This document shows, in pieces, positions 5,810 to 28,780 of a stretch of DNA of 64,000 nucleotides. The notes beneath the pieces were generated by a model. It did no database searches. It saw only the letters and a list, made by a program, of their open reading frames with translations, and was not told the DNA's origin. The position numbers and the translations under genes were made by a program. Each line of letters begins with the position of its first letter. Positions within the stretch are counted from its first letter, which is position 1. This stretch comes from Patescibacteria group bacterium (GTDB lineage: Bacteria > Patescibacteriota > Gracilibacteria > UBA4473), in assembly GCA_965660445.1 (NCBI GenBank), contig CBFIAK010000001.1, positions 640,001-704,000 of the forward strand, in the 5' to 3' direction.

Positions 5810-5883
5810 AGGCGCGTCGTATAATGGTAGTACAGGGGTCTCCAAAGCCCTTAGCGTGGGTTCGATTCCTGCCGCGCCTGCCA
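5810..5883 (+). tRNA. trnW: tRNA-Trp(CCA)
   Basis: Acceptor stem AGGCGCG/CGCGCCT, anticodon loop CT-CCA-AA, T-arm GGTTCGATTCC, encoded CCA end. Confidence 0.97.
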
Positions 5884-6030: not shown

Positions 6031-6948
6031 CTAAGAAGGCTTTTGAGAATCTATATACTCCTCAATTGCTTTTTTACTCGATACCCAATTACGACCTTCT
6101 TTGTAGGCATCAATTAAGCCTCTTCGAGCTAAAAGCCCTAAATACTCTGCCGAGTAGGGTGTTTCCGGGGCTATTTCAGAAAGCGGTCTATAACTTTCAG
6201 AATCTGTTTGTATTTCAAAAGCAGAAAGATAAAGATCCAAAGATCTTTCAAGAGCCTGTCCAATTAAGAGTTTTAGTTTTCCATAGTTTCCATTATTTGC
6301 CTGATTAAGAGCATCGTAATACTTTTTTCGGTCATTTCTAAGAATTACGGCTGGTGGATAACCCTCTTGCATAAGCCATAAATTCATAAGTAATCGAGCG
6401 GTTCGACCATTCCCATCAAAAAATGGATGAATCCATACAAAACGATGATGAATAAAGGCTGCTAACTCTAAATCATTTTCCTGTGATTGTTTTTTAACTA
6501 CCTGTTCTACAAAATCTGTCATGAGTTCTGGAATTTTATGTCCAGAAGGAGGGATGAAATTTGCTCCCATAATTCGAACCTGTCCATTTCGATATCTTCC
6601 TGTAAAATCCTCTTCTATTCCATCAAGTACCAATGTATGAAGCTGGAAAATATGGTCTTCTGTAATATTAGATTTTTGTTGAATAAGTAATTCTAAGTGT
6701 GCAATAGCTTTCTCGTGGTTTTTGGCTTCAAAATGTTCACGCAGAGATTTTCCCTTAATCGTTATACCTTCTTCAAGGACTAAACGTGTTTCTTGTAGAG
6801 TAAGGGTGTTTCCTTCAATCGCATTTGAATTATAGGTCCATTCAAGGGAAAGATCGTGTTTCAGCTTTTTAAGGATAGATGCAGAAAGAGGTCGGAGTTT
6901 ATCCAACTTCTTTTTTTTCTTTTGGATTCGTTGGAATAAATTATTCAT
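6031..6948 (-). CDS. Fic family protein (class II) with C-terminal HTH
   Basis: Catalytic HPFFDGNGRTAR motif; inhibitory SNAIEGN motif; C-terminal YSAEYLGLLARRGLIDAYKEGRNW HTH-like domain. Confidence 0.93.
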   Translation of the reverse strand: MNNLFQRIQKKKKKLDKLRPLSASILKKLKHDLSLEWTYNSNAIEGNTLTLQETRLVLEEGITIKGKSLREHFEAKNHEKAIAHLELLIQQKSNITEDHIFQLHTLVLDGIEEDFTGRYRNGQVRIMGANFIPPSGHKIPELMTDFVEQVVKKQSQENDLELAAFIHHRFVWIHPFFDGNGRTARLLMNLWLMQEGYPPAVILRNDRKKYYDALNQANNGNYGKLKLLIGQALERSLDLYLSAFEIQTDSESYRPLSEIAPETPYSAEYLGLLARRGLIDAYKEGRNWVSSKKAIEEYIDSQKPS

Positions 6949-6997
6949 ATCGGATAGTATTTATTTCAACTCTATCCGATATTTGATAAAAAATCAA
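6947..6997 (-). promoter_or_regulatory. sigma70 promoter overlapped by an 11-14-11 palindromic operator
   Basis: TTGATT(6997-6992)-17bp-TAGAGT(6974-6969); ATATCGGATAG(6947-6957)-N14-CTATCCGATAT(6972-6982). Confidence 0.8.
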
Positions 6998-7048
6998 GAA
7001 AACAAATTTCATCAAAAACTTTAGACTTATAGTGATCGATATAGGTCG

Positions 7049-7780
7049 CTATTTTTTGGGGATTATTTTCCCTTTAAAAGGGTGTGAGCAGACTACGGCA
7101 CATCGCTCGTTGATACATTTTGAACCATAAGGGCAATGTGATTGAATTAAATAGTGCATGGGGGTTTCGCAATTTGTGTCGTGAGAACAAGATTCTTGTA
7201 AGATTTCTATTACTTCAAAATCTTGAGAGGCTTCAGATAACTTCATTGTTTCGGAGTCAAGGAGAAGCCAAATACTTTTCCCAACTGATGGCTGTATGGT
7301 AAAGGGTTCTTCAGGTGCTCGGTCCATATAATTAACGATAACTGTTTTCCCTTCTCCAGATTTAGTTGTTTGAGGAGCAATACGATCTCCAAGAAGAATA
7401 GCGTTTGATCCGACATATCCATTCTCAGTATTAAGTGCGGCAACTACATAGAAAAATGTTCCAGATCCCCCTGAATTCTGTGTAAGAAGAAACACTACAT
7501 CTTCTCGACCATCATCATTCAAGTCTTTTTTAACTTCATTCCCAAAATACTGAGTAATAATTTTAGATTTGGATTCCGATACTTCCTCAATCTCAGACGC
7601 CCCATTTTCTAGTTTTATACGTGTACCATCAATAATATATTCAGCATCTTTGTAATCTGGCTGAAGAACTATTTGCTCCAGTTGTTTTACTTCGTGGTTG
7701 TCCTGCTTGCTATTAAATATATATAAAGCCCCTCCAAGTAGAACGATACTTGCGATTATGTATAGGATATTTTTTTGCAT
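7049..7780 (-). CDS. membrane-anchored hypothetical protein (island cargo)
   Basis: N-terminal TM helix; DLNDDGREDVVF…GGSGTFFY motif; Cys-rich tail. Confidence 0.75.
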   Translation of the reverse strand: MQKNILYIIASIVLLGGALYIFNSKQDNHEVKQLEQIVLQPDYKDAEYIIDGTRIKLENGASEIEEVSESKSKIITQYFGNEVKKDLNDDGREDVVFLLTQNSGGSGTFFYVVAALNTENGYVGSNAILLGDRIAPQTTKSGEGKTVIVNYMDRAPEEPFTIQPSVGKSIWLLLDSETMKLSEASQDFEVIEILQESCSHDTNCETPMHYLIQSHCPYGSKCINERCAVVCSHPFKGKIIPKK

Positions 7781-8007
7781 TCGTTTATTTTATTGCAATT
7801 GAATAATAGAAAGATTGAGAATATAAGGCAAAATTTCGCATGTATTTATAGATAATTACTTTTTCATCCTTTTGCTAAGGGCAAAGATAATGAAAAATGC
7901 AAATCAAAGTGTTCTATCGATGACCTATCCCCCTTAGTAGAAAAGGGATAATTCAATATCCCTCAATACTCTTTCTGGGATTGCTAAAGATTATTTTAGG
8001 AGGGGTA

Positions 8008-8027
8008 GATTCCTATCGCCCCTGCCA
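8008..8027 (+). repeat. diverged tRNA-Trp 3'-end copy (att-like relic)
   Basis: GATTCCTATCGCCCCTGCCA vs GATTCCTGCCGCGCCTGCCA of the tRNA (3 mismatches in 20). Confidence 0.75.
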
Positions 8028-8174
8028 CCTAGTGCACTAAGCCAGTCCCAGATTGGCTTTCCTATGGATGCAGGGCTCTAATAATTCCGAGTGAAATTAA
8101 TTTCAATAAGCCTTTACTGGCTTATTTATCTTGTTTTCAAGGGTTCCAGACCTATCGCCTAGGTATGCAGAACG
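8028..8174. repeat. conserved non-coding left-end module, copy 2
   Basis: Homologous to 5884-6030 and in the same position relative to the att copy and the Fic gene. Confidence 0.85.
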
Positions 8175-9092
8175 CTAATTAAGTTTTTTGGATTCGATGT
8201 ATGCATCAATGGATTTTTGGGTAGAAACCCAATTACGACCTTCTTTATAAGCGTCAATTAAGCCTCGGCGAGCAAGCAAACCTAGATATTCTGCTGAATA
8301 AGGAGTTTGAGGCGCCAGCATAGAAAGTGGTTGATAGATTTCTTTTTCTGTTTGTACATAAAAGACTGAAAGATACATATCGAGTGACCGTTCTATTGCC
8401 TGAGCGATCAAAAGTTCTATTTTTTTGAAATCTCCATTATTAGCTTTGTTTAAAGCGTCATAGTATTTTTTTCTATCATTTTTTAAAATTACAGCGGGAG
8501 GATATCCCGATCGCATCAGCCATAAATTCATCAACAATCGAGCCGTTCTTCCGTTTCCATCAAAAAATGGATGAATCCATACAAAACGATGATGAATGAA
8601 TGTCGCTAATTCTAAGAGATTTTCTTTTGATTTTCTTTTAATTATCTGTTCTACAAAATCTTTCATGAGTTCCGGAACTTTGTGTCCAGAAGGAGGAATA
8701 AAATTTGCTCCTACAATTCGAACTTGTCCATTTCGATATCTCCCCGCAAAATCTTCTTCAATTCCATCCAGTACAAGTTTATGAAGTTGAAGAATATGAT
8801 CTTCGGTAATGTTTGATTTTTGTTGAATAAGTGATTCTAGGTGCGTAATAGCTTTCTCATGATTTTTTGCTTCAAAATGTTCTCGAAGCGACTTCCCTTT
8901 GATTGTTATGCCCTCCTCTAGGACTAAACGAGTTTCTTGAAGAGTGAGAGTATTCCCTTCAATCGCATTGGAATTGTACGTCCATTCAAGCGATAAATCG
9001 TATTTTAATTTTTTAAGAATAGACGCGGGAAGTGGACGAAGTTGATCCAACTTCTCTTTCTTTTTTTGAATTCGTTGTAAAATTTCTTTCAT
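8175..9092 (-). CDS. Fic family protein (class II) with C-terminal HTH, paralog of 6031-6948
   Basis: Same length (305 aa) and same HPFFDGNGRTAR, SNAIEGN and HTH motifs; many synonymous differences. Confidence 0.93.
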   Translation of the reverse strand: MKEILQRIQKKKEKLDQLRPLPASILKKLKYDLSLEWTYNSNAIEGNTLTLQETRLVLEEGITIKGKSLREHFEAKNHEKAITHLESLIQQKSNITEDHILQLHKLVLDGIEEDFAGRYRNGQVRIVGANFIPPSGHKVPELMKDFVEQIIKRKSKENLLELATFIHHRFVWIHPFFDGNGRTARLLMNLWLMRSGYPPAVILKNDRKKYYDALNKANNGDFKKIELLIAQAIERSLDMYLSVFYVQTEKEIYQPLSMLAPQTPYSAEYLGLLARRGLIDAYKEGRNWVSTQKSIDAYIESKKLN

Positions 9093-9141
9093 ATCGGATA
9101 GTAACTATTTCTATTCTATCCGATATTTTATAAAAAATCAA
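9091..9141 (-). promoter_or_regulatory. sigma70 promoter overlapped by an 11-14-11 palindromic operator
   Basis: TTGATT(9141-9136)-17bp-TAGAAT(9118-9113); ATATCGGATAG(9091-9101)-N14-CTATCCGATAT(9116-9126). Confidence 0.8.
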
Positions 9142-9489
9142 GAAAATAAAGGCAAATGAAAGGGTTCTATGGTAACCGATGCCCTATGGGGATAGGGCAC
9201 CTTCATTTTTATGAAACTAAACCACAGAAAAGCCTTTTGGGGATTGTATCGCCATTTTAGAAGGGTTCGATACGACGAACGAAGAAAAAAGAAAGCGCTC
9301 GCAGAGCATTTTCTTTTGGCGAGTAAGGACGTCACGAAAGAACTATCCCGATTTTTCGGGATAAAAATGAATATCATTTTTTGTGATGAAATCACAAAGT
9401 GCTTGAGTATATGAGGAGCGAAGAGCGAACTACAAATTTTGATTTCCATTTATCTACTAAAGCCAACGAGAGTTGGCTGACAGGACGAT

Positions 9490-9508
9490 ATTCCTGCCGC
9501 GCCTGCCA
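9490..9508 (+). repeat. attR-like duplication of the tRNA-Trp 3' end
   Basis: Exact 19-bp match to 5865-5883. Confidence 0.9.
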
Positions 9509-10239: not shown

Positions 10240-10265
10240 TAGTAAAACCTTGCCGATTAACTATT

Positions 10266-10300
10266 AAAACCTCTTATATCTTATGATAGAGAGGTTTTTT
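10266..10300 (+). terminator. intrinsic terminator
   Basis: AAAACCTC…GAGGTTTTTT hairpin after ORF 9637-10239. Confidence 0.6.
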
Positions 10301-10332
10301 GCTTTTTCACAAATTTTCTCCATACTTAAATT

Positions 10333-10902: not shown

Positions 10903-10923
10903 GAAAACGGGCATCAAAGGAGA

Positions 10924-11200
10924 CTACTCTATCCCCAACGATCCCAATTTCTCAAACAAAAACTCTATTCTTTTATCTACAGACTCCTCTATTGTTGAAG
11001 CTTTATATTCAGGAATACAAATGACCCCAAATCCTCGGTTGGTATATTCCTCTTCCAAAAAATCTCGAATCTGTAGCGCTCCTTGATAATCAAATACTCT
11101 CCCACTCTCTTTCCGGTCATCAAAGTTTTCCAAAATTTCACACAAAAATACCGCATCATAATGAACTGACCCAGCCATATCTTCGAGTTCCGAAGAAATT
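10924..11200 (-). pseudogene. C-terminal remnant of a predicted AAA_28/NadR-type ATPase
   Basis: …ISSELEDMAGSVHYDAVFLCEIL…D.R.E…Y…G..VI.IP…S.DKRIEF resembles the AAA_28 C-terminal half; no Walker A; frame runs into the Mrr sequence. Confidence 0.45.
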
Positions 11201-11942: not shown

Positions 11943-11993
11943 GCAGTTATTGTAGCTTTTTTTCTATTTTTTCAAACAAAGCAACCTATGAAA

Positions 11994-12575
11994 TTAGTAC
12001 TTCCGTGGAAAATGTTCTTTGCCTAATTGCCACAAATACTTATCGATTTGTTTCAAATCAAACTCTTCTAAATTATAAAATTCTCTAAATTTCAGGAGAA
12101 TGTTTTTAAAATCAGGATAAGTCTTTAGGTCGGCACTTTTAAAACTACAAAACTTATCTTTCTTTTTGAAATACATCAGGATTTTCTCCAAATATGAATC
12201 GTAAATCGGATATACAATTGGTTTGTGATGGCTACAGTATTTTGTTGCAAAGGAATAGAAGTTCTTGAAAATCCCTTCTTTTACTTCTACATAGGCAATT
12301 TCGTTTACAATTTCCAGATTCTCTTTATTTAGCTTTTGATCAATATTTAAAGCCACAATGTGCTTTGCGACTGCAAATGGAGAAAAAATATTAGTGCTAT
12401 AAAAATCATTCAAAGCACATACTTTTATGAGGACATCATCAAGTTCTGTATTCGTTGGATACGTCTTTGAAAAAAGTTTCTTCAAACTACTTTCTTGTGA
12501 CACATAACTATCGAGAGAATCCCATTTCTTGAGATAATGTTGAACTTCTTGGGGAGCAGGAAAGGGAATGTTCAT
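11994..12575 (-). CDS. HhH-GPD-like (DNA glycosylase-fold) hypothetical protein
   Basis: NFYSFATKYCSHH.P..YPIYDS and terminal IDKYLW motifs. Confidence 0.6.
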   Translation of the reverse strand: MNIPFPAPQEVQHYLKKWDSLDSYVSQESSLKKLFSKTYPTNTELDDVLIKVCALNDFYSTNIFSPFAVAKHIVALNIDQKLNKENLEIVNEIAYVEVKEGIFKNFYSFATKYCSHHKPIVYPIYDSYLEKILMYFKKKDKFCSFKSADLKTYPDFKNILLKFREFYNLEEFDLKQIDKYLWQLGKEHFPRKY

Positions 12576-12577
12576 TT

Positions 12578-14077: not shown

Positions 14078-14080
14078 AAA

Positions 14081-15724: not shown

Positions 15725-15728
15725 GAAT

Positions 15729-18700: not shown

Positions 18701-18752
18701 AATTAGACCTGTGTTGTTTGTATTTGTTAACCAGTGTTGAAATATCTGTCAT
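15729..18752 (-). CDS. type IIG restriction-modification fusion enzyme (Eco57I/BpmI family)
   Basis: YNETQLRNDFIDP, PDY…VEAK nuclease motif; DICCGSG and NPPY MTase motifs; C-terminal TRD; 1007 aa. Confidence 0.93.
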   Translation of the reverse strand: MTDISTLVNKYKQHRSNYLKASYNETQLRNDFIDPLLKSLGWDVDNKKRQTQFLRDVIQEEYIEVEDSISKKNPDYTLRVNGTRKLFVEAKKPSVNILKSAKSAFQTRRYGWNANLGISILTNFEDLVIYDCRFKPNSSDGEHVARIKKFKYTEYEKAFEEIQDIISYHSAASGRIDDLYSVYERMGETFDNHFLEQIEKWRKTLAESAVKLNKEIDNESINFLIQRLLNKIIFLRICEDRSIEKFETLKNIKDYKALKEIFIQSDKKYNSGLFDFIEDRLSLKIEIDSEVLIEVFSELYYPLSPYDFSVVDTSILSQIYEKFLGSKIVLDEKRQLSILEEPEVSASNGVVPTPKIIVEKIVQETLNPIISEKTSDEILKLKISDICCGSGTFLISSYDYLLRTIIEKFIEEGVDDQKLIIKKSDNSFALTVNSKRKILENIIHGVDINPYAAEVTKFSLLLKLLEDETAATVDNFIDQFSERVLPDLKENIKCGNSLVDSKFYDFMGSSLSDTLLLRTKPFDWEKEFPFLKSTKGFDAIVGNPPYVRIQNLVKYTPEEIKYYQSKDSGFSVATKESIDKYYVFIQRAILLLNAKGFLGYIVPHKFFINKGGKSLRKYITENSQLSKLVHFGITQIFPERSTYTAIIVIQKEHTNNFQFKKIDKITPEILSDNTWGTYKTEKYNSDPWIFLQPEVEAIFNNIYSQNIKKLKEVAEIAVGLQTSKDPIYIFTPENETNEKFIFSKDGIRYEIEKDICRPCIYDLSFDLFDTISGNAQMIFPYKITDRAELFSEKFLQTEYPLCWEYLNKHKAVLEVRSLNGRDPKWYQFGRSQSLTRFHNAPKLIWSVLSTEPAYIFDNNDLQFTGGGNGPYYSLLQNSDYSIFYLLGILSHPVFENMVKAGASEFRGAYYSHGKQFIENLPIRLIDFQNAEEIADYEEIIKLVKELIKTKDKFNKSFDTEKSVFERKIDVLMEKLIKKINKIYNISNDDFKLATSNNTFLSELTDNT

Positions 18753-18757
18753 GAAAT

Positions 18758-18979
18758 TTAAGATATTAGTTGATCAAGAGTAATTTCTAATCCTTCAGCA
18801 ATTTTAGTTGCCGTTGGAAGCGTTGGACTTTTAATTACATCGCTTTCAATCTTAGCGAGTGTGGTATATGGAATATCAGCTTTTCGTGCCAAAGCCTCTT
18901 GAGTAAGCTTCCTTTTCGCACGCCAAGCTTTTATTTTTTGCCCGATACTTCGCTCTTCCTTTTGTTTTTTTTCTTCCAT
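18758..18979 (-). CDS. XRE-family HTH regulator (R-M controller-like)
   Basis: IKAWRAKRKLTQEALARKADIPYTTLAKIES HTH_3 pattern; 5 bp upstream of the R-M gene. Confidence 0.9.
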   Translation of the reverse strand: MEEKKQKEERSIGQKIKAWRAKRKLTQEALARKADIPYTTLAKIESDVIKSPTLPTATKIAEGLEITLDQLIS

Positions 18980-19082: not shown

Positions 19083-20363
19083 CTAATCGGTTTTTAGCTT
19101 CACGGTTCCTCGCTCAAGAAGTAATTGTCCTTTGACACATCGAAGTACTTGTTCTTTCTCCTTTGGTGTTCCGTTTTTGAGAAGAAAGCATATGTATTCA
19201 TGAACGCTCATCAATTGTGCTTTGTCTCCATACCGAACCATTTCCATCTGATTAATTTTTTCGACTTCCTTTTGTATTTCTTTGCGAATATAGAATGAAT
19301 TTTCGTCTGTTTGAGTAACGAGGCTAGATACTTCTTCAATGAGCTTCTGTTCAGGGATGTATTTCTCTTTACAGATCCCGTGTCCGTAATACCGATTGCA
19401 CTTGTAGTAGCTGTATTCTTTCCCATGACGGTTGATATGGGTTTCTCCACACACGCCTGATCCACAGACCCCGCATTTAAAAATTTTGTTGAAGTAAAAC
19501 TGTTTCCGTCCCCATTTTCCTTTTGGACTTACAATCAATTTCGTTTGAGTGAGGTCGTACATTTTCTTGGTAATCAAGGGTTTGTAATCTCCGTCATACC
19601 AGTTTCCAGAACCTCGGGGATATTCGAATTTTCCGTAGTAGAAAGTATCGCCTAAGATTTTGTAAATCATGCTGAGTGATACGATTTTGTCATTTCTCGA
19701 TTTAAGTCCTTCTCTTTGCATGTGATCCCAAACCTGCCGTCCACTCATTCCCTCGTGAGCCACGAGCATGAAAATCTGTTTTATGTACGGAGCACGTTCT
19801 GGATCTACTTCTATCGTGCTGGGATCAGACATTCGCTCGCCTCGCTTAAGAATGTATCCAATCGGGGGAGATCCAGGGCGAACGCCTGTTTCACATTTCG
19901 CTCGCATACCTCTTTTTACATTCTTGGATCGGTTGTCGTTTTCTAGCTTCGCCTGAGAACAGAGAATCATGAGAAGAAATTTCTCGTCAGGGGTGTTGGT
20001 AAATTTCTGACCGCTCGTCTGGATCTTGACCAACTTTTCTTGATCCATGAGATCGACAAGTGTCCCTAGATCTCCTGCATTTCTGCTCAACCTGTCAGGA
20101 GCCCATGTCAGCACACAATTGAAGCGTTGCTCGCTGATTCCCAAGATCACTTTGTTGTATCCGATTCGTTGCCCCGAGGACTTAGCCGATTTGCTCTCTC
20201 GAATCGTTTCCACGATCTCAATCCCTTCTTTTTCTGCGATTTGTGTCATCTCTTTGATTTGAGAATCAATACTCATGGCTTGCCGTTCATCCGCTTCGCT
20301 CGACTTACGGGCGTATAAGCAGTAGCGAAGCGGTTGTTCCGATATCGATATTGGGTTTTCCAT
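19083..20363 (-). CDS. large serine recombinase 1
   Basis: YARKSSE catalytic Ser, DRLSRN, recombinase domain, CGVC…C…C zinc ribbon. Confidence 0.93.
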   Translation of the reverse strand: MENPISISEQPLRYCLYARKSSEADERQAMSIDSQIKEMTQIAEKEGIEIVETIRESKSAKSSGQRIGYNKVILGISEQRFNCVLTWAPDRLSRNAGDLGTLVDLMDQEKLVKIQTSGQKFTNTPDEKFLLMILCSQAKLENDNRSKNVKRGMRAKCETGVRPGSPPIGYILKRGERMSDPSTIEVDPERAPYIKQIFMLVAHEGMSGRQVWDHMQREGLKSRNDKIVSLSMIYKILGDTFYYGKFEYPRGSGNWYDGDYKPLITKKMYDLTQTKLIVSPKGKWGRKQFYFNKIFKCGVCGSGVCGETHINRHGKEYSYYKCNRYYGHGICKEKYIPEQKLIEEVSSLVTQTDENSFYIRKEIQKEVEKINQMEMVRYGDKAQLMSVHEYICFLLKNGTPKEKEQVLRCVKGQLLLERGTVKLKTD

Positions 20364-20410
20364 CACGACAAGTGATGTCGCAGGAAATGTTTAAGTCTAG
20401 GCGGAATCGC

Positions 20411-21967
20411 TTAAAAGGGTCCAAAATTTGGAAATCGTCTGTCATAACTGGAAAGAAATTGTTCCATCGACATACTGCTGACAGAGGGTCCATCATCTAA
20501 TGGGATAAATTCAAAATGAACTTCTCGTTCTGCCATTATTTCGTTGATTGCAATCGTTAACGCATCGACCAAGTCATCGTGTTTTTCCACCCCAAATCCC
20601 ATGACTTGTTCAATGATTCTTTCGCATCCTTTTTTGGGAAAGAGGACTCGCCCTGTTTTTATGTAATGGTGTGCAGTACAAAGTCTTGATCTTTTGTCGC
20701 CCACAATACTCACTGGTTTTGTATTATAGCCATCTCGATCCATTTCTTGCTCAAACGCTTTTTGATACCCCACATCTTCCGTAAAAATCTTTACAGATTT
20801 TGGATGATCGTGAATCGTTGAACAAAGAGCTTTCAGCCCTTCTTTTGAGCCAGAAAAATCTGGTCGCCCATGAAAGAAATTCGGAAGAATAAAAACGTGT
20901 TTCTTTTTATTCATTTTATAAACCTTCATTGGAATAAACGCGGTATAATCTGCCGAATTTTTTTGAGAAATAGACAAGTCAGTCCCAATAGCTGGAAACC
21001 GAAAATAAACACTATTTTCTGAGTTTTTATCATGGTTTTCCTGAGGAAGGTCTTCGTAGTAGTGAATATCTTCAGGAAGGACGATTTGTCCTTCGTCAGG
21101 AATAATTCTAAGCATAAATTCTCGTTGCCATGCAATATGATTCCCAACTCGTTTTTCTTCGGCTTTGATGGCTTTTGCGTTTGGATATTTTCCGTGCCAC
21201 AAGGCTTTATTGTTTCTCGCAACGGGGTATGCTTTATATCTTCCTGTCATTTCGTTTTTTCTGATTTTTTCTTTCATCCGCATGATGACGGAATCCTCGT
21301 GGAGCAAATTTCCAATCATAATCAATCGTGTATTTTGATCGCCTGCAGGAATCACTTCACTTGTCAGCCAATCATAGGTTTTGTTTCGCCCTTCTTTGGT
21401 TTTTACAGAAGAAAGATCTTCAATATCGTCACAAATGATGAGATCGGGGCGGTATTGGTTGTGTCGTATTCCACGCACACTTTGTTCCATAGAAACCGCC
21501 ATGATTCGGGCATCGTGTTTGGGAATCAAAAGTGAAGACGTGCTCCACTCATCGTCTTCTTTGAAGGGTCCCAAATCTTTCCGTAAAAGGGCATTTGATT
21601 CGAGTTCTCGCCTAAGATTTTTGAGATGTTGTCGAGCTTGGTGTTGGGTTTGCCCTACAAGCAAGACAAATTTTTTCTGTGGTTTCCCAAGAATTGACCA
21701 CAGCGGATAGGATAAATTTACAATCGTTGATTTTCCTGATCCCCGAAACGCAATAATGACGAGATTCTTTATTTTTTCATTTTCGGTGAACTGAAACATT
21801 TCTCGCTGAAAGTCCGCTGTTTTGTAGGTGATGTAATGATGAAAGTATGTATGAAAGAACCAATAATGACTTTGACTGGTTATTTCTTGCCGAACGCGGT
21901 AATCGGTAAGGATTTTTTGAATTGTATCTTTATCAAGTTCTGGAATGTTGTAGCTTGAAGTTTTCAT
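20411..21967 (-). CDS. phage terminase large subunit
   Basis: Walker A AFRGSGKS, VRG..RPDLIICDDIE Walker B, IGN coupling motif, RNase H-like nuclease GTDLS…HDDLVDA. Confidence 0.88.
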   Translation of the reverse strand: MKTSSYNIPELDKDTIQKILTDYRVRQEITSQSHYWFFHTYFHHYITYKTADFQREMFQFTENEKIKNLVIIAFRGSGKSTIVNLSYPLWSILGKPQKKFVLLVGQTQHQARQHLKNLRRELESNALLRKDLGPFKEDDEWSTSSLLIPKHDARIMAVSMEQSVRGIRHNQYRPDLIICDDIEDLSSVKTKEGRNKTYDWLTSEVIPAGDQNTRLIMIGNLLHEDSVIMRMKEKIRKNEMTGRYKAYPVARNNKALWHGKYPNAKAIKAEEKRVGNHIAWQREFMLRIIPDEGQIVLPEDIHYYEDLPQENHDKNSENSVYFRFPAIGTDLSISQKNSADYTAFIPMKVYKMNKKKHVFILPNFFHGRPDFSGSKEGLKALCSTIHDHPKSVKIFTEDVGYQKAFEQEMDRDGYNTKPVSIVGDKRSRLCTAHHYIKTGRVLFPKKGCERIIEQVMGFGVEKHDDLVDALTIAINEIMAEREVHFEFIPLDDGPSVSSMSMEQFLSSYDRRFPNFGPF

Positions 21968-21979
21968 TTTTTAAATGGG

Positions 21980-22378
21980 TTAAGATTTTTTAGAGGGTAA
22001 AAGTGATCCCAAAGACAACGCTTTGGTGACCATTGCTTGTTGTTCTTCGGTCAGTTCTCGGTCTTCAATACGAGTGGTGACTTCGAATTTCTGCGTGTAG
22101 GATTTGTGGCGGTGTTTGAGCCAAAAAATGATGGCAGTCAGATTCTTGTCTTTGATAGCAGACAAAAGTTGAGATTCTGCCATATCATTCATGAGCTTTA
22201 CGCCTTCGTGAATGGCTTCATCGGCTTCTTTGGCAAACTCTTTGTCGTCTTTTCTCCAGCGATAGTAGGTCGCTCGCCCAAGACCTGTTTTTTCGCACGC
22301 CAGTTGAACAATGGGCGTCTTTTTGAGTTGTTCACATAACGCCTGCTTTTGCTGTTGCTGTTTCTCATTGATATTCAT
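21980..22378 (-). CDS. phBC6A51-type HTH protein, probable terminase small subunit
   Basis: ACEKTGLGRATYYRWRKDDKEF HTH and TAIIFWLK motif; immediately upstream of TerL. Confidence 0.8.
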   Translation of the reverse strand: MNINEKQQQQKQALCEQLKKTPIVQLACEKTGLGRATYYRWRKDDKEFAKEADEAIHEGVKLMNDMAESQLLSAIKDKNLTAIIFWLKHRHKSYTQKFEVTTRIEDRELTEEQQAMVTKALSLGSLLPSKKS

Positions 22379-23145
22379 TTTTCTGTGGGGTTAAGAGGTA
22401 CAGCTTTTTGCCCAGTGATCTTTTCCCACCGATCAATAATGACTTGGCAGTATTTCGGTTCGATTTCGACCATGTAGCATCGACGTTTCGTTTGTTCACA
22501 GGCAATGAGTGTTGACCCACTCCCACCAAAACAGTCGTAGACAATATCTTCTCGTCGGGTGCTATTGAGAATAAGTCTGCGTAAAACAGATATATTCTTC
22601 ATGGTCGGATGCAGATCGTTCTTTTTTGTCTTGGGACTGATGAGAACGGACTTGTCCTGCGATTTCATGAATTCATGTCGTCCACGCCAACCGTAGGCGA
22701 TGAGTTCGTGTTGGGGCAGATAATCCAGTCGTCCAATGACCGCCCCTGTTTTTACCCAGACCAGTATTTGAGAAAGCTTGAATCCTTCCGCTAAAAACGC
22801 TTCCCTCATGGCGAACATCATTTTGTCCGAGTTGAATACCGCAAAAGCGTTCTTGTCGGTCAGTCGATTTTTAATGGGTTTCAGCCAGTTTTGGGTGAAT
22901 GTTTTGAATTCCTCGTCCGACTGAATGTGATCGTTCTGGATTTCCTCGTGTTGGATTTCCGATTTCACGAAATCTTTCTTTCCTGACACAAGCGACACCC
23001 CATATGGTACGTCAGTGCAGATGAATTTGATTTTCTCTGTGCCAAGTAGTTTTTCTACCTGGTCTGCGTTGACCGCATCGCCACAGATAAGTCGATGTTC
23101 TCCCAATTGGAAAGCATCCCCGATACTAATTGATTGTTTTGACAT
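22375..23145 (-). CDS. site-specific DNA methyltransferase (N4/N6, beta class)
   Basis: HRLICGD, TDVPY, HPTMK and DCFGGSGST motifs. Confidence 0.88.
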   Translation of the reverse strand: MSKQSISIGDAFQLGEHRLICGDAVNADQVEKLLGTEKIKFICTDVPYGVSLVSGKKDFVKSEIQHEEIQNDHIQSDEEFKTFTQNWLKPIKNRLTDKNAFAVFNSDKMMFAMREAFLAEGFKLSQILVWVKTGAVIGRLDYLPQHELIAYGWRGRHEFMKSQDKSVLISPKTKKNDLHPTMKNISVLRRLILNSTRREDIVYDCFGGSGSTLIACEQTKRRCYMVEIEPKYCQVIIDRWEKITGQKAVPLNPTEK

Positions 23146-24418
23146 CGTTTTGTGGGTTAAGAGCTAAATATCGAGCGATTATGACATCGCAAAAAGCAGG
23201 GTCTTTTTCGACCAAGAATGATTTTCGTCCGAGTTGGTCACAAGCGACCATCGTACTGCCCGATCCTCCAAACAAATCGAGCACGGTGTCTCCGGGTTTC
23301 GTACATCGCTTGAGGGGGCGTTCGTGAAGGGTTGGGCTTTTTTCTGTCGGGTGTTTGTACTCTGAGGTGGGCAGTCGTTTGACCAACCAAATGTCGAGCA
23401 TATCCTCAATGTCATCAAGCGTGCGGTTTCCAGTCCCAATTTCTGGGTTCAGGATTTCTGTAAAATTGGAAGACTTGTCGCTTAAAAACGGTTTTCCCAC
23501 CGTTCCATACACGCAGGGTTCATAGCATTTGTTGAAGGCAATTTGAGGCGTAACATTTTGGTTATTTTTAACCCAAAGGCACACCCGCTGATTTTTTATT
23601 CCATTCTTCTGATACAAATCCTGCAAGAGTCCGATGTAGTTCTGATCGCAGAAATAGAAAATATGGGCATTGGATTTGCAATGCACCAGTCCGTTCTGAA
23701 TCGTTTTCTCTAAAAACGCCCGATATTCCGTATCGGTTTTCTTGTCATCGACTTTCGCACAATCGTACTTTTTCTTTTTCCCCAGTCCTTTCTGATAATC
23801 ATAGGACAGATTGAAGGGCGGATCTGAATAGATCGCATCAATCTTTGTTTCGCCCAAAAGCTTATTGATCACTTCGGGGTCTTGGGAGTCCCCACAAACG
23901 AGCCGATGTTTCCCGAGTTGAAACATTTCTCCTGTTTTTGTTTGAGGATTTTTTTGCGCTTTTTCTAATTCTTCTTTGGTATTGAACTCATCATCCTCGA
24001 TTCCTAATGCTTCATCCCAGATAACTGATAAATCCGAATCATCGAATCCGACATCAAGTAGCAAATCGAGGTCAAAATCTTTGAGTTTTTGGAAATCAAA
24101 TTCTCCGGTGTTTCGATTTAAGCGAAGATTTAACTCTTTTTCTTTCTCGATATCTGGAATATCTAAAAAGATCACGGGGACTTCCTCGTATCCCAAATCT
24201 TTGGCGACTTTGAGACGGAAGTGTCCGCCAATGGTTATGTTCTTCCTCTTGGGCGAACTATTTACGAGGATTGGATCAACCAGCCCGAAGCGTTTGACGC
24301 TCTCGGTGAGTTGATCAATTGCTCCTTTCTCCCATTTTCTAGGATTGTACTGAGCGACTTTCAGTTCTTTGATCGGAACTGAGACGATTTTTAACGAAGC
24401 CGACTTTTTTGTACTCAT
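23126..24418 (-). CDS. ParB-N domain-DNA methyltransferase fusion
   Basis: YNPR…GGHFR ParB/Srx domain; DPPF, HPTEK and DLFGGSGS MTase motifs. Confidence 0.9.
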   Translation of the reverse strand: MSTKKSASLKIVSVPIKELKVAQYNPRKWEKGAIDQLTESVKRFGLVDPILVNSSPKRKNITIGGHFRLKVAKDLGYEEVPVIFLDIPDIEKEKELNLRLNRNTGEFDFQKLKDFDLDLLLDVGFDDSDLSVIWDEALGIEDDEFNTKEELEKAQKNPQTKTGEMFQLGKHRLVCGDSQDPEVINKLLGETKIDAIYSDPPFNLSYDYQKGLGKKKKYDCAKVDDKKTDTEYRAFLEKTIQNGLVHCKSNAHIFYFCDQNYIGLLQDLYQKNGIKNQRVCLWVKNNQNVTPQIAFNKCYEPCVYGTVGKPFLSDKSSNFTEILNPEIGTGNRTLDDIEDMLDIWLVKRLPTSEYKHPTEKSPTLHERPLKRCTKPGDTVLDLFGGSGSTMVACDQLGRKSFLVEKDPAFCDVIIARYLALNPQNDVKTIN

Positions 24419-24546
24419 GACAAAAATAATTAAGAAATATATCTCAATTATTGGGGGGTGTCGGACGTAAATGGGGGATTTTTTACCTACAAAAAAACCA
24501 AGTCGCTTGATTACTTAGCTTTGGGCTTCACGAACTTTTGGGTTTC

Positions 24547-25407
24547 TTACCCTGCGATGTCTATTTTGATTTTGCATTTGCCATTTCTAATATTTTCAAA
24601 CGGATCTTCCGTGATTCCAAAACATCTTTGAAGGTCTTCTCGAAGCATGCTCAATTCCTGTTTGAAGTTAGCGTGCCCATCCTTTAGAAATTTTGAAAGA
24701 GTTCCACGATTTGAAGCGAATTTTTCCAACAACGTCCAACTAACCCTCGGACTGTTTGTGGTTTGACTCATAAATCCCAAATCGTAGAAAGTGGATTTTT
24801 GTTTGTTTTTTCCATCACTAATTTCGACCTCGTGAGAATTTAAAAATTTCAACGCTATTTCTTCCCAACGGGATACTTTTGGTTGCAGAAAATCTCTCGA
24901 AATAATGGTATTCCCTTGAATATGTACGTTTACGGTAATGTGTTGGTGAACAACGGGTTGTTCTCTCCTTGATGGGGTCGGAAGAATTGTTCGCTCCTCA
25001 TAAGAACTTATGCGGTGTTCAAAATAAGTTGATGACATTTCAGGAAAGGTCATCTTTGGAAGACTGTGAAATGTCTTCATCGACTGGTTTATCAATTCCA
25101 TATTTGGCATTGATGCTTGGATCTGTTTTGAAAGATCCGTAATTCCACTCATGTCTGGCAGAGTCGCTCTCATCCTTTCAATATCTTTTAAAATTGGCTC
25201 TATGTGCGACATCGAGTTCTTTATTTGCTCTGAAAGAGCGGTAAGTCCAGTCATGTCTGGCAAATTCAGTTTCATACCCTCCATCGCTTTCAGCATGGGT
25301 TCCATATTTATCTGCGTTGCTAAACTGGCAGATCTCCCAATAGCTCCGAACTTTTTTAATTGGTCAGGAGTAAATGTTCGACGTCGACGGGTTACTGTGG
25401 CGATCAT
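24547..25407 (-). CDS. hypothetical protein with Met-rich helical repeats and possible C-terminal winged-helix
   Basis: LPDM(T/S)G.T.LS.QI..SM repeated twice; 4-nt overlap with the upstream SLATT gene. Confidence 0.6.
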   Translation of the reverse strand: MIATVTRRRRTFTPDQLKKFGAIGRSASLATQINMEPMLKAMEGMKLNLPDMTGLTALSEQIKNSMSHIEPILKDIERMRATLPDMSGITDLSKQIQASMPNMELINQSMKTFHSLPKMTFPEMSSTYFEHRISSYEERTILPTPSRREQPVVHQHITVNVHIQGNTIISRDFLQPKVSRWEEIALKFLNSHEVEISDGKNKQKSTFYDLGFMSQTTNSPRVSWTLLEKFASNRGTLSKFLKDGHANFKQELSMLREDLQRCFGITEDPFENIRNGKCKIKIDIAG

Positions 25408-25835
25408 TTTGTGGTTTTTTCTGATTTATGAATTTCGATCCATTTGGTATTTTCTCTTGAAATTAGAGCCTCGACCCTTTCAACAAATAAAGCTTCTTTA
25501 TCCGAGGCATCTGCATATTCGTATAATTTTGCATCGTAGAAATGTTTTTCTTTCTTAAGGCTCTCAGCAATAGTTCTATAAGAGAGCCAATTTTCTTGAT
25601 ATTTAAAAGTCTTTAGCGAAGTTGCCATAATGGCGACAAAGACAGAAGCAATCGTTGGAACCAAGTTTGAATAAGGTTCGAGCAGTATCAATATGGGAGT
25701 TAATGCCGAACAAATAATCAATCCCCATTGAAATCCCACATACCATTTTTTATTACGTGAAGATTTTTCACTATACCACTTCACTTGCGATTTATACCTT
25801 CCATCAACGTATTCATCGAATTCAGTTTTATTCAT
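25404..25835 (-). CDS. SLATT/DUF4231 two-TM effector protein
   Basis: RY..QVKWY..KS..NK, two TM helices, ENWLSYR..AESLKKEK…FVERVE.LIS.EN..W. Confidence 0.88.
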   Translation of the reverse strand: MNKTEFDEYVDGRYKSQVKWYSEKSSRNKKWYVGFQWGLIICSALTPILILLEPYSNLVPTIASVFVAIMATSLKTFKYQENWLSYRTIAESLKKEKHFYDAKLYEYADASDKEALFVERVEALISRENTKWIEIHKSEKTTK

Positions 25836-26296
25836 AGTCCCAATTCGTTATAAACGGAATCTTTCCAGTGCCAGTCATCATCATCTTTTTTGGAAAAATT
25901 ATCAAGGCTGTATTTTATGATTGAAGCCTTAAACGGGACAAACATAGCCCCCTTGTTTTTTAATATTGGAGGACACATTTCATCAACTCGTCTGCTTCCG
26001 TTTAAATTTACACATATGAGCCTGCAATTTTTTTCTATCGCAATATCAGCTTCCCATCTTACATATTTATGTTTTGATTTTGTATCTTCCCCAATGAGCT
26101 GAATAAATGTTCCGGAGTTTGTGATTTTTTCACGAAGAATACGTTTTATGTAAGATTCATCTTGAGATTGAATACTTCTATCTAGTTGCATATCGATGAA
26201 ATCAAAGTCCATTTTTCCATTTGCCTTCCATCCTTTCATAAAATCGTAGTATTGTTTGTCTGTACTACTGAAACCGACAAAAACTCTATTTGCCAT
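25832..26296 (-). CDS. TIR-domain protein (ThsB/DUF1863-like)
   Basis: RVFVGFSS.D, YIKRILREKI..S…LIGEDT…YVRWE with the putative catalytic Glu. Confidence 0.88.
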   Translation of the reverse strand: MANRVFVGFSSTDKQYYDFMKGWKANGKMDFDFIDMQLDRSIQSQDESYIKRILREKITNSGTFIQLIGEDTKSKHKYVRWEADIAIEKNCRLICVNLNGSRRVDEMCPPILKNKGAMFVPFKASIIKYSLDNFSKKDDDDWHWKDSVYNELGL

Positions 26297-26486
26297 TTAT
26301 CAAGTCATTAAGAGAGGCGACATTATTTTTTTCAAGATATGTCCCCAAGTGCATATCTGACCGAACTCCGAAATCTTTTTCATATTGTTTCTCGATCGTT
26401 CCCATGTGAGTATCGTCTCGTTTATCACGAAGTTGTCCATCTTGGTTTCTTGAGCGGTTTCCTCGCATTCCTGGTGCATCTGCCAT
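26286..26486 (-). CDS. small protein with duplicated R-x-D-x-H-x-G-T motif
   Basis: 66 aa; KRDDTHMGT and VRSDMHLGT; overlaps the TIR start by 11 nt. Confidence 0.7.
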   Translation of the reverse strand: MADAPGMRGNRSRNQDGQLRDKRDDTHMGTIEKQYEKDFGVRSDMHLGTYLEKNNVASLNDLINGK

Positions 26487-26574
26487 TTTCTTGTGGGTTA
26501 AAAGCTACTGACACTACTAAATATAGCGTTTTTTTAGAAAAAGTAAAATAAAAACTACATAAAACTAGAATTTC

Positions 26575-26603
26575 TTGATTTTTTTAATTCTACAACGTAT
26601 AAT
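26575..26603 (+). promoter_or_regulatory. sigma70 promoter of the LexA-like gene
   Basis: TTGATT-17bp-TATAAT. Confidence 0.7.
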
Positions 26604-26626
26604 TTTAATGAAAAAAACAAATCATC

Positions 26627-27270
26627 ATGCACGAAACACAACGAAAAATATTAGCACTTCTTGAGTCAAAGGGACAGCTTTTCCTTAAATATGCCCAAAT
26701 AGCTCGGGATATTAAAGAAGACAGTCTTCAAAATGTTAAATATCATCTTTTGCAACTCGAGAAACGTGGCTATATCGTTATTGATAAAGTCAAAAAAGTA
26801 GTAAAAAAAGCGTCAGATGTAGCGGAAAAATCTTTAGGATTTTCTAATATTCCTTTTTATGGCGATGCCAATTGCGGATCTCCCTTATCTTACGCCGAAG
26901 ACATGCAACACGGGGTTCTTAAGGTTTCATCTTCGCTAGTACCAAGTTCCGAAAATATGATTGCGCGGTACGAGCTGTTGGAGATTCAATGAATATATCG
27001 CGTATTAAGGGATCTTCAATTGAAGATGGAGATTATGTTATTGTTGATACTCAAAAAAAAGCACCAGAAGCAAAAGATTATATACTTTCTGTTATTGATG
27101 ATGGGGCGAATATTAAACGAATTTATTTCGATGAAACAAATCATTATGTCGTCCTTAGATCAGAATCCAATGATCCAAATTTTCGAGATATAATCATACA
27201 TGAAGACGACAAGTATTCGGTTGTGGGAACGGTAGAATGTGTAATAAAGAAGCCTCAAATCGAAGATTGA
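26627..27270 (+). pseudogene. LexA/CI-like S24 repressor split by a 2-nt insertion
   Basis: wHTH plus ANCG cleavage site in ORF 26627-26992; removing one CG from GCGCG (26963-26967) restores IAVRAVGDSM (catalytic Ser) into ORF 26989-27270 (ANIKR, catalytic Lys). Confidence 0.85.
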
Positions 27271-28517
27271 TTCTTTGATTCATAAATCACTTGCTTGTCT
27301 TTTATCAAAAGCCTCCCATTCAATGCTTGTAGAGATTCAGATTTCTTTTGAAGACTTCCGTATACCAATTCATCCTGTATGAATTGATACGGCTTAAGGG
27401 GTGGTTTTATGAAAAAATTACACCTTCTCATGTCATCTTTTTGGCGTTGATTGAGTTCGCTAATGTCTAAATCCGTTATTTGTTCCGCAATTTTTTCTAT
27501 TTGTGCCAGAAGATTTTTTCCTCGAATGCTTAATTGTTTGCAGTTGCTATTGTATTTATTGCACGAGTAGTAAAGGTAGAGTCGATTGTACCTATTCCTG
27601 TAAATCTCACCAGAAATACCAGATCCGCACTCGCCACATTTAAAAATTCTATTGAATTTGAAAGGAATCTCTCCCCATTTTCTTCGGGGTTCTCGGGGAC
27701 CTCGTTTTGCGATGTTTGTTTGGACTTTATCATAAAGTTCCTTGGTAATGAGCGGTTCATGAATACCTTTGTACCAATTCCCACTTTTTTTGGGGTATTC
27801 AAATTCTCCGTAGTAAAAAGTATCTGCCAACATCTTTTGAAGCCTACTTTTGGCTAACTTCTTTCCATGCTTCGAAAATTTCCCCAATCTGTCCATATCT
27901 TTCCAAATGTGGTAGATACTTTTGTTCTCTTCTCCCACTAACCGAAATATCTCTTTCACAATGGGAGCTTTTTCTTCATCAATTACAGCTCTATTTGGCT
28001 CGTGTATATCTTCTCCAGGTACAAGTTTGTATCCTAATGGCGTTGCATAGGGTCTTCGTCCTTGTTCACAAGCTGCCCTCATTCCACGTTGCACGTTTTT
28101 ACCACGATTTTCATTCTCAAGTTTTGCCTGACTTCCCAAAAGCATGAGCAAAAACTTCTCATTTGGATTATTTCCAAGAAATGTTCGGTCATGCGTTCGA
28201 ACAACCTGTAATTTCTCTTGATCCATTAAATCGACCAACATCCCTAAATCTCCTGCATTTCTGCTGAGTCGGTCAACCGCCCATGTTAAAATCGCTTCAT
28301 ATTCTCCATCCATCAGTCCTGCCATGAGCTGAGTGAATCCCGGGCGAGAAAAGGAAGTTTTTGCAGATTTACACTCTTCTATGATTTTTACGACATCAAG
28401 ATCTTCTGCCTCTTGAATTTTTCTCATCTCTCGGAACTGAGATTCAATCGACATAGCTTGTTTTTCATCTTGTTCAGAGGACTTTCTGGCATAAATACAA
28501 TAGCGAATATTAGACAT
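27255..28517 (-). CDS. large serine recombinase 2
   Basis: YARKSSE, DRLSRNAGD, CGECG zinc ribbon; paralogous to recombinase 1. Confidence 0.93.
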   Translation of the reverse strand: MSNIRYCIYARKSSEQDEKQAMSIESQFREMRKIQEAEDLDVVKIIEECKSAKTSFSRPGFTQLMAGLMDGEYEAILTWAVDRLSRNAGDLGMLVDLMDQEKLQVVRTHDRTFLGNNPNEKFLLMLLGSQAKLENENRGKNVQRGMRAACEQGRRPYATPLGYKLVPGEDIHEPNRAVIDEEKAPIVKEIFRLVGEENKSIYHIWKDMDRLGKFSKHGKKLAKSRLQKMLADTFYYGEFEYPKKSGNWYKGIHEPLITKELYDKVQTNIAKRGPREPRRKWGEIPFKFNRIFKCGECGSGISGEIYRNRYNRLYLYYSCNKYNSNCKQLSIRGKNLLAQIEKIAEQITDLDISELNQRQKDDMRRCNFFIKPPLKPYQFIQDELVYGSLQKKSESLQALNGRLLIKDKQVIYESKNQSSI

Positions 28518-28521
28518 ATGA

Positions 28522-28633
28522 AAGGGGTTACAATGGAAACATTATAATCCCTTGTGTAAATACATCTTGAATAAAAAAATTGTTCAAAGGAAATATTGAG
28601 ACACCCCTTTTTTATAGTGTCTCATTTGTCTCA
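28522..28633. repeat. inverted repeats upstream of recombinase 2
   Basis: AAGGGGTTACAATG-GAAA-CATTATAATCCCTT (28522-28553); TGAGACAC(28597-28604)/GTGTCTCA(28617-28624) plus extra TGTCTCA (28627-28633). Confidence 0.7.
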
Positions 28634-28659
28634 TTTTCAAGGTCAGGTATAATAAAATA

Positions 28660-28780
28660 TGCAAGGCATAAGACACCAGACCGACAGCCACTGCCAAAAC
28701 AAAAACCTTGGCATACCAACAAAGATTTGGTGTGGCGGGCTTTTTGCTATTTGCTCGGGAGGAATTGAACCTCAGTTTGT
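28660..28780 (+). ncRNA. candidate structured non-coding RNA (three-way junction)
   Basis: TATAAT at 28648-28653; stems GCCAC/GTGGC, TGCCAA/TTGGCA and ACCAA/TTGGT, followed by a T-run. Confidence 0.4.

Follow-up and report, generated by a model that had tools for sequence, protein, structure and literature searches.

Integrative, capsid-less elements with a complete terminase in Patescibacteria: possible phage satellites carrying defence genes

Classical phage-inducible chromosomal islands (PICIs), together with the pathogenicity islands of Staphylococcus aureus (SaPIs), are repressor-controlled islands of about 15 kb that encode their own small terminase subunit (TerS) and carry accessory or defence cargo. 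They use the large terminase subunit (TerL) of a helper phage; a primase/replicase module is part of them, and genes for capsid remodelling often are too. The element described here lies in a 64,000-nt stretch of a genome of the Patescibacteria, or candidate phyla radiation (CPR) (GenBank assembly GCA_965660445.1, contig CBFIAK010000001.1, positions 640,001–704,000; hereafter the window, whose first nucleotide is position 1). It belongs to a family of integrative, capsid-less elements that encode both terminase subunits. To judge from the general descriptions of PICIs and SaPIs at hand, the window family shares with them a repressor, a size of about 15 kb, an own TerS, accessory or defence cargo and an integrase near the attachment (att) end; it differs in encoding TerL and in having no conserved replication or remodelling gene.

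Two other kinds of satellite come close. In capsid-forming PICIs (cf-PICIs), TerL is a distinguishing core component, accompanied by capsid, head–tail adaptor and connector genes (PMC10085698); these islands encode the proteins for their own capsids and steal only tails (10.1101/2022.09.08.507074). As described in the accessible parts of these accounts, cf-PICIs resemble the window family in being integrative and in having both TerS and TerL, and differ from it in their capsid, adaptor and connector genes, which were not found in the window family. A serine integrase, a tRNA target, a ParB-methyltransferase and CPR hosts further separate the window family from cf-PICIs. Integrative mobile elements encapsidated in virions (VEIMEs) are small integrative elements, some of which have serine recombinases, TerS homologues and restriction–modification (RM) cargo, with no capsid remodelling (PMC9618062). 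The accessible text of that account speaks of TerS and of ‘motor-like ATPases’, treats TerL as a helper gene and mentions no Patescibacteria host (PMC9618062). The mobilization of phage-inducible minimalist islands of the chromosome (PICMIs) is said, in the part of the source at hand, to need only a DNA motif (PMC11389934). VEIMEs and PICMIs, marine elements packaged as concatemers, are small integrative elements like those of the window family, and the window DNA itself comes from a marine plankton metagenome. An own TerL and a Patescibacteria host set the window family apart from both, as a distinction between partial descriptions only.

The satellite families listed in the available portions of recent papers are P4-like elements, PICIs, cf-PICIs, PLEs, PICMIs, VEIMEs, tycheposons, MiniFlayer-type elements and EPIPs (PMC11389934; PMC12822802). 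Papers on CPR phages and gene exchange describe, in their accessible parts, full prophages and not an element joining a terminase to a large serine recombinase (LSR) (PMC6509639; PMC12455944). A literature search, with supplementary tables outside its range, gave no description of a capsid-less element with TerS, TerL and an LSR. As far as these partial sources go, the element family was previously undescribed, and the nearest kind, compared by description, is the phage satellite or hitcher element.

All genes named in the preliminary description of the window (two recombinases, a LexA-like gene, a TIR/SLATT pair, a ParB-methyltransferase, a second methyltransferase, TerS and TerL) were recovered, at or close to the positions given there, from the listing of open reading frames (ORFs) with Pfam and PHROGs. 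These genes lie on the minus strand throughout, the repressor excepted. The conserved module opens with a ParB_N-N6_N4_Mtase gene (ParB-MTase, 23126..24418; Pfam, PHROGs), and continues with an N6/N4 DNA methyltransferase of the N6_N4_Mtase family (MTase, 22375..23145; Pfam, PHROGs), TerS of the HTH_Tnp_1_2 type (21980..22378; PF13022 at 1e-9 and PHROGs), TerL (20411..21967; phrog_38 at 1e-82) and rec1, the canonical LSR of the element (19083..20366; Resolvase, Recombinase and Zn_ribbon_recom domains in Pfam). TerS matches seven PHROG families, six of which are small-terminase families (best 2e-8). From ParB-MTase through rec1 the genes overlap or sit 12–44 nt apart and thus look like one operon. 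As had been noted from the sequence, rec1 stands directly downstream of TerL, in the place of a portal gene. The G+C content is 0.41–0.44 over 19–25 kb of the window, compared with 0.30–0.37 around it.

A scan of prokaryote genomes, one per species, with the window TerL as query returned 12 loci, every one of which keeps ParB-MTase, an optional MTase, TerS, TerL and LSR, at TerL identities of 40–81%. The LSR is downstream in 11 of the 12, and upstream and reversed in the other. All the genomes are labelled CPR except one metagenome-assembled genome (MAG), L008 (CAYOXM010000009.1); its label, ‘uncultured Gammaproteobacteria’, looks wrong, as a genome search puts this MAG in the phylum of the window. 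The 105 flanking ORFs of the 12 loci contain no portal, capsid or tail family in Pfam; the flanks consist of housekeeping genes (in L010 RuvCAB, immediately following the LSR; AcrB in L008 and L011) or of restriction and defence genes. An alignment of the 12 TerLs, used to query IMG/VR and metagenomes, identified relatives in 341 of 360 candidate stretches of IMG/VR and in at least 386 of at least 598 metagenome stretches. Neighbourhoods were analysed for the best 80 viral and the best 80 metagenome loci, which with the 12 genome loci make 172, their ORFs labelled by BLAST. The recombinase–terL–terS–MTase–ParB-MTase synteny proposed in the preliminary description as a check thus extends from 12 of 12 genome loci to most of the 160 viral and metagenome loci. 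Even the four most divergent matches in Patescibacteria genomes (34–37% identity) all have the element layout.

The loci with the most distant TerLs are built differently: the gene after TerL encodes a portal protein fused to a Mu-F-like domain (phrog_2662 / phrog_12), and a protease and then a major capsid protein (phrog_10) follow, according to PHROGs. Custom portal, capsid and protease profiles built from these portal-bearing loci match 24 of them strongly. Among the remaining loci they give a single weak match (a 159-aa ORF in L150, 1e-5), and in the window's own genome, with its 943 ORFs, none; the Pfam families PF04860 and PF05065 are also absent from that genome. A FastTree phylogeny of 151 TerLs, the window included (12 exact duplicates, five loci with two TerLs, four with a TerL shorter than 440 aa and one without a labelled TerL were left out), separates two clades with local support of 100/100 on both sides. 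One contains 23 TerLs, 22 of them with a portal (none was detected in L179); the other, the element clade, contains 128 TerLs, none of which is followed by a portal. As the tree is a quick one and midpoint-rooted, we claim a bipartition and not a rooted clade.

Within the element clade (n=128), the LSR is downstream of TerL in 78 loci and only upstream in nine, while in 26 loci the flanks are shorter than 3 kb and the remaining 15 show no LSR within reach. In the 64 loci with at least 5 kb of downstream sequence, the corresponding counts are 49 downstream, seven only upstream and eight with none in reach. Downstream LSRs are on the TerL strand in 77 of 77 cases; 32 adjoin TerL, 27 come after one to three ORFs and 18 after four or more. 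ParB-MTase lies at most four ORFs upstream of TerL in 88 of the 90 element loci with enough flank, an ORF matching the TerS profile abuts TerL in 111 of 119, and the second MTase is optional (32 of 90 loci). ParB-MTase, the optional MTase, TerS, TerL and LSR therefore form a conserved module and not the residue of a one-off deleted prophage, a conclusion that is strongly supported.

The sister-clade tailed phages, known from uncultured IMG/VR stretches (for example L141, L157 and L159), have TerLs at 35–45% identity, with the same Walker and nuclease motifs, and ParB-MTase stands upstream of TerL in at least eight loci. They differ in what follows TerL: portal with the Mu-F-like fusion, protease and major capsid protein in the phages, cargo and LSR in the elements. 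Cultured phages and plasmids yielded only TerLs of 26% identity or less, and for a set of cultured phages the ceiling was 25%. In 401 evenly sampled Patescibacteria genomes, TerL (E ≤ 1e-60) was found in 45, seven of which have two copies, and in the family to which the window's genome belongs, two of the 18 other genomes carry it; the distribution is patchy.

The TerL of the window has a Walker A motif FRGSGKST, a Walker B motif RPDLIICDDIED and the acidic residues of the nuclease. All 128 element TerLs retain K79, S80 and T81 in Walker A, D180 and D181 in Walker B, and D330, D465 and D468 in the nuclease centre; E183 is kept in 127 and E397 in 126. The motifs that the preliminary description had read in this one protein are conserved across the family. 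The ATPase domain aligns with T7 gp19 (DNA maturase B), the closest solved structure by sequence (profile match to 4bij, E 9e-5), and shares with it FRGxGKS and a DD.E Walker B, whereas only the N-terminal 150 residues or so match at that level. Ratios of non-synonymous to synonymous substitution (dN/dS) were calculated by NG86 for pairs with measurable dS only, several pairs being saturated. They are 0.014–0.07 for TerL (for example 0.022 for L231/L247, at dS 0.60), 0.009–0.11 for TerS, 0.023–0.12 for ParB-MTase and 0.04–0.06 for the second MTase. TerL is under strong purifying selection. The preliminary description had named two findings that would undo its proposal, relaxed selection on terL and close homologues running on into portal and capsid genes; since neither was found, its proposal that CPR bacteria have a separate class of integrative element, equipped with a full terminase and defence cargo, stands at the level of the family. 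Two full-length TerL genes occur in tandem in L109, L114, L120, L121 and L125, at G209:C5:87855-90906 and at G255:C1:69884-72845; they were first taken for split or intein-bearing genes, a view that we dropped.

The ends of the elements can be recognized in part of the family. ARAGORN, run on 133 element loci, placed a tRNA gene downstream of TerL in 24, always on the opposite strand and with its 3' end towards the element (tRNA-Gln 8, Ser 7, Glu 3, Asn 3, Arg 1, Tyr 1, Trp 1). Seven loci have a tRNA upstream, and in the three with an upstream, reversed LSR this tRNA is on the plus strand, so that the geometry is the same in mirror image. At the tRNA-Trp of L203, a direct repeat of 89 nt without mismatches encloses 14.8 kb comprising left cargo, LexA, the module, the LSR and post-LSR cargo, and an 86-nt direct repeat (93% identical) in L143 encloses 14.3 kb. 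The LSR, a serine and not a tyrosine recombinase, adjoins the tRNA-proximal end of the element.

The opposite, left end is marked by a repeat motif made of a TATAAA-like spacer and three copies of AAAGTGACA(C), two direct and one inverted. It is located 4–8 kb upstream of TerL and, where the left repeat is known, about 90–110 nt inside it. The same architecture occurs with the half-site variants GAGACA, GTTACA, TAGACA and GGGACA. By pattern search the motif family was detected in 26 loci, every clear instance in the plus orientation; a strict GTGACA/GTTACA pattern matched 20 loci forward and none in reverse. The distance from motif to tRNA is 14.1–17.8 kb in six loci. Conservation also extends over about 100 nt left of the motif (L236:430-600 and 14 further loci). 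This stretch holds two CTCGAG palindromes and an apparent reverse complement of a tRNA anticodon/T-arm/acceptor region; it could be an arm derived from the element's own attachment site (attP) or a small structured RNA. Two elements, L116 and L261, have TerLs that are 97% identical and LSRs that are 58% identical, and lie at tRNA-Glu and tRNA-Gln, respectively. Near-identical modules at different tRNAs with swapped LSRs have the appearance of modular exchange.

In the direction of transcription, an element consists of the left end (the pseudo-tRNA-like stretch and the motif), variable cargo, a divergent LexA/CI-like S24 repressor and the conserved operon; after TerL come zero to about ten cargo genes, the LSR, often more cargo, and the tRNA with its 3' end towards the element. 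We favour, with moderate confidence, the view that such an element acts as a phage satellite and uses helper capsids to package its own DNA; the packaging itself we infer. The repressor would silence the operon until DNA damage or infection by a helper phage. The LSR, with a directionality factor, would then excise the element, and the methyltransferases would pre-modify its DNA, protecting it in transit. TerS would recognize the element by a pac site, with the left-end repeat motif as a candidate, and TerL would cut and pump element DNA. Since the family has no capsid, portal, tail or lysis genes, TerL would have to dock on the portal of procapsids from a co-infecting helper phage; portal-bearing phages of the sister TerL clade do exist. 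In the new cell integration would take place at the 3' end of a tRNA gene, a step for which the geometry is observed and the LSR is the presumed catalyst as the sole recombinase present, and the defence cargo would benefit the host.

Several points weigh against this satellite reading. Nothing directly points to excision, replication or packaging, nor to a helper. No circular or terminally redundant contig occurs among the loci, and no portal-bearing prophage of the sister clade was present in the inspected Patescibacteria genomes. Among public runs, the stretch was found only in contigs of the probable source sample or study. No primase or replicase family occurs in three or more of 137 element loci, where a PIF1-like helicase is present in three only; in the absence of a conserved replication gene, the formation of a packaging substrate (a concatemer) is unexplained. 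This substrate and the helper are the weakest link of the satellite reading. To regard the left-end motif as the pac site is a guess: motif type tracked no single protein clearly, since identities within and between types are 0.63 and 0.48 for TerS, 0.63 and 0.55 for TerL, 0.56 and 0.47 for ParB-MTase, 0.64 and 0.56 for LSR and 0.36 and 0.33 for the N-terminal domain of LexA, all families being higher within a type in a comparison confounded by phylogeny. LSR identity does not follow tRNA type (0.523 in 49 same-type pairs, 0.519 in 204 different-type pairs), which leaves two options: a target other than the nearest tRNA in some loci, or a looser specificity than assumed. Finally, the window copy has an additional LSR, rec2, which is unexplained, and its repressor is frameshifted, so that this copy may be locked or decaying.

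A wider hypothesis, which we put forward only tentatively, sees the family as phylum-wide minimalist satellites that keep, of all virion functions, TerS and TerL only, use exchangeable LSRs at tRNAs and form a main defence shuttle of CPR bacteria; the motif would be their packaging signal, and terminase-less islets bearing it, such as the one with a third LSR described below, could be packaged in trans and would be satellites of a satellite. CPR bacteria have tiny genomes, few recognized prophages and few CRISPR systems, and the exchange of genes and defence systems among them is poorly known. If the satellite reading is true, elements present in about one in nine sampled genomes, with RM, CBASS, TIR, Fic and retroelement cargo, would represent a major unrecognized route of gene flow. 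The family fills a gap between satellites that have TerS only and satellites that build whole capsids. It also makes a terminase gene alone an unsafe marker of a virus, as the 341 relatives in IMG/VR, the best 80 of them mostly with element layout, illustrate. The exchangeable LSRs beside tRNA genes are candidates for new site-specific integrases.

Cargo was surveyed by clustering 1807 ORFs from 137 element loci and naming the families with Pfam and PADLOC. The only common families are TerL, the methyltransferases, LSR and TerS. A LexA/CI-like repressor with winged helix-turn-helix (wHTH) and S24 domains is present in 23 of the 137 loci, usually transcribed away from a small ORF located ahead of ParB-MTase, and a 136-aa protein of no named family in 15. 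Reverse transcriptase genes in 14 loci and bAvd in seven represent diversity-generating retroelements (e.g. L002:687-2206, L124:4423-5481, L239:15338-15688). Further cargo includes type I RM subunits, type IIG, ISP and MmeI enzymes, a CBASS cyclase with a SAVED-HNH effector, ThsB-like TIR, SNase, Cas4/DUF2779 nucleases, T5orf172 and, among the defence cargo, Fic. The cargo consists mostly of defence genes. The 67 recurrent cargo families include no structural family, and 32 recurrent unknowns rescanned with PHROGs gave no structural match. No single conserved gene precedes ParB-MTase: among 70 upstream ORFs, 20 belong to the 136-aa family, three are homologues of unk286 (a 286-aa protein of the window, described below) and 47 are neither.

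The company of defence genes lends itself to another explanation, in which the terminase module is an anti-phage device: TerS and TerL, perhaps with ParB-MTase, would sabotage the packaging of an invader, for example by cutting its concatemers or occupying its portals, and the LSR would merely move the island. We regard this as unlikely. It agrees with the position of the module, always in or beside defence cargo, and with the lack of replication genes in the element loci; a conserved nuclease and ATPase would be needed there too, and satellites are known, from the accessible part of one account, to interfere with helper packaging (PMC11417361). However, TerL and TerS match no PADLOC model and the methyltransferases only generic MTase models, and an interference device leaves unexplained why TerS, TerL, the methyltransferases and the repressor stay with an integrase and why near-identical modules are found at different tRNAs and in different hosts. 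Interference and self-transfer are compatible with each other.

Alternatively, the terminase could package DNA in situ from an integrated pac site, in the manner of lateral transduction, so that helper capsids would receive the downstream cargo, the LSR, the tRNA and host DNA, and the cargo would spread by homologous recombination. Phages with a pac site and this gene order package in the downstream direction, and it is downstream of TerL that cargo is found; the lack of replication genes also suits such a process. Packaging in these elements may run in another direction, however, and discrete, repeat-bounded elements of 14–18 kb at different tRNAs, together with a conserved integrase, favour transfer as a unit. 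Phage- and PICI-mediated lateral transduction of defence systems is the subject of a 2026 paper, of which a part was available (PMC12829572), but for the present family we give this explanation little credence.

The preliminary description had bounded the copy in the window by its two recombinases (19083..28553), which proved too narrow: the element runs past rec1 towards a tRNA-Trp gene, and relatives end at a tRNA and at the left-end motif. The tRNA-Trp (anticodon cca, 5810..5883, plus strand; ARAGORN) has its 3' end towards the island, which is the geometry of the family, and L203 is also located at a tRNA-Trp. Its last 19 nt recur, by blastn-short, at 8009-8027 (within a 75-nt repeat at 8008-8082, 87%) and at 9490-9508 (19/19 nt). 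This tRNA-Trp is a probable integration hot spot. Next to it are two small, tandem, paralogous Fic (SoFic-like) islets (6031..9508; Pfam Fic, PADLOC SoFic / PDC-S04), each of which ends at a copy of the 3' end of tRNA-Trp; they are probably separate tandem insertions, and as they carry no recombinase of their own, they may be mobilized in trans.

The interval from 9637 to 18979, between rec1 and the tRNA side, is occupied by cargo (Pfam, PADLOC): a 200-aa ORF, a methyladenine glycosylase, an Mrr-like nuclease (PDC-S02), a 193-aa ORF, a Cas4-like/RNase_H_2 nuclease (499 aa), a type II MTase, a type IIG RM enzyme (1007 aa) and a helix-turn-helix controller. Relatives also carry cargo between LSR and tRNA, in L203 inside the flanking repeats, and all of the 9637-18979 cargo presumably moves with the element. 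On the left, the repeat motif (28595..28637, minus strand) shows the architecture common to relatives, with two direct TGAGACA(C) copies and an inverted one around TATAAAA, 78 nt upstream of rec2. A tRNA-like T-arm/acceptor fragment read from the sequence at 28745..28770 (minus strand) may, with some uncertainty, be an att remnant near the left boundary; against the 36 tRNAs of the genome it gave only matches at the level of the T-loop, with no full-length partner. Of the attachment sites of this copy, only the tRNA side is clear. The most likely extent of the element is 19 kb, between about 28.7 kb and 9.5 kb, or 23 kb, with 5.9 kb as the other boundary, if the Fic islets are counted.

Relatives normally carry one LSR, downstream of TerL. 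The second LSR of the window, rec2 (27255..28517, minus strand; Resolvase, Recombinase and Zn_ribbon_recom domains in Pfam), is intact and 46% identical to rec1 over 415 aa. While rec1 is 81–87% identical to the LSRs directly after TerL in L002 and L004, the best match of rec2 to any terminase-linked LSR is 47%. Layouts with two LSRs occur also in L228 and L244, where the extra LSR lies outside the motif; rec2, inside it, is atypical for the family. Between rec2 and the left-arm cargo, and divergent from the latter, is the LexA/CI-like repressor (26627..27270, plus strand; Pfam). The LexA-like gene of the preliminary description is present, but as a wHTH ORF and a Peptidase_S24 ORF and not as one intact frame: in tblastn, intact homologues of 205–245 aa are colinear with it in two frames around a frameshift at about 26944-26965, and the second ORF begins just past the catalytic serine of a GDSM motif. 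With only contigs at hand, the frameshift may be an assembly error. That the window copy is a dead prophage or element remnant without present function is very improbable, for although its repressor is broken, its layout is composite, with an additional LSR and tandem Fic islets, and public runs show no activity of this copy, the five genes of the module are intact with their catalytic residues kept, the frameshift may not be real, and across the family purifying selection is strong and a portal is never linked to the module.

The public runs contain no contig bridging an excised form, and no RNA run with the stretch is listed. Two joints reported in another sample have sides of 21–22 nt, likely due to chance or to other organisms, and were rejected. 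In an empty-site comparison, the Tag gene was present in one of five related genomes, elsewhere on the chromosome.

The same genome (991 kb in five contigs) also holds, on contig C1, an exact copy of the 43-mer motif of the window, upstream of a third LSR (C1:62663-63937). This LSR (424 aa) is 73% identical to the terminase-linked LSR of L006 and is followed by a tRNA-Lys on the opposite strand; a 91% copy of the motif lies 3 kb from the first, across a 900-aa gene (islet C1:59469-64817). With motif, LSR and opposite-strand tRNA-Lys, this locus is an islet built like the elements but lacking a terminase. In it a second motif type (GTTACA) comes after the first, as in L210. Another terminase of the bin, a 614-aa TerL on contig C5 (2992 bp), was set aside, being only 30% identical to the window TerL over 155 aa; it is 79–94% identical to the best 80 of 409 related IMG/VR stretches, and C5 is probably a common uncultured phage, co-binned. 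Contig C4 (8564 bp) has a match to a ‘virion structural protein’ (phrog_1383, 1e-17). Both contigs may be fragments of phage that were binned along with the genome, or may belong to a phage of this host.

The preliminary description had stated that portal, capsid, tail, lysis and replication genes are all lacking from the window. For the structural and lysis genes this stands, as Pfam found no portal, capsid, tail or lysis family among the 57 window ORFs scanned, apart from a distant match to PF04020 (phage holin 4 / DUF360 membrane family, 2.5e-10) in a 127-aa protein at 40719-41102; located among housekeeping genes 12 kb from the element, this is probably a membrane protein of the host. For replication genes it does not, PriA and DnaX of the host being within the window, though outside the element.

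The left-arm cargo forms an operon on the minus strand (24547..26486; Pfam, PADLOC) of orf66 (26286..26486, of no family), a ThsB-like TIR gene (25832..26296; Pfam ThsB_TIR 3e-16, PADLOC ThsB 2e-43), a SLATT/DUF4231 gene (25404..25835; Pfam) and unk286 (24547..25407, of no family); orf66 and unk286 were defined from the ORF listing. The TIR gene is translationally coupled to the SLATT/DUF4231 gene, which encodes a two-transmembrane protein (25404-26296). This pair, without ThsA, is not a canonical Thoeris system, and PADLOC matches the TIR alone. Within the unk286 gene, at 25121-25305, lies a tandem repeat of 102 nt (34 aa). The protein matches nothing in Pfam, PHROGs or PADLOC; its homologues occur in seven loci and adjoin ParB-MTase in L003 and L208. 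The Cas4-like nuclease of the window has a counterpart, 55% identical, in L010.

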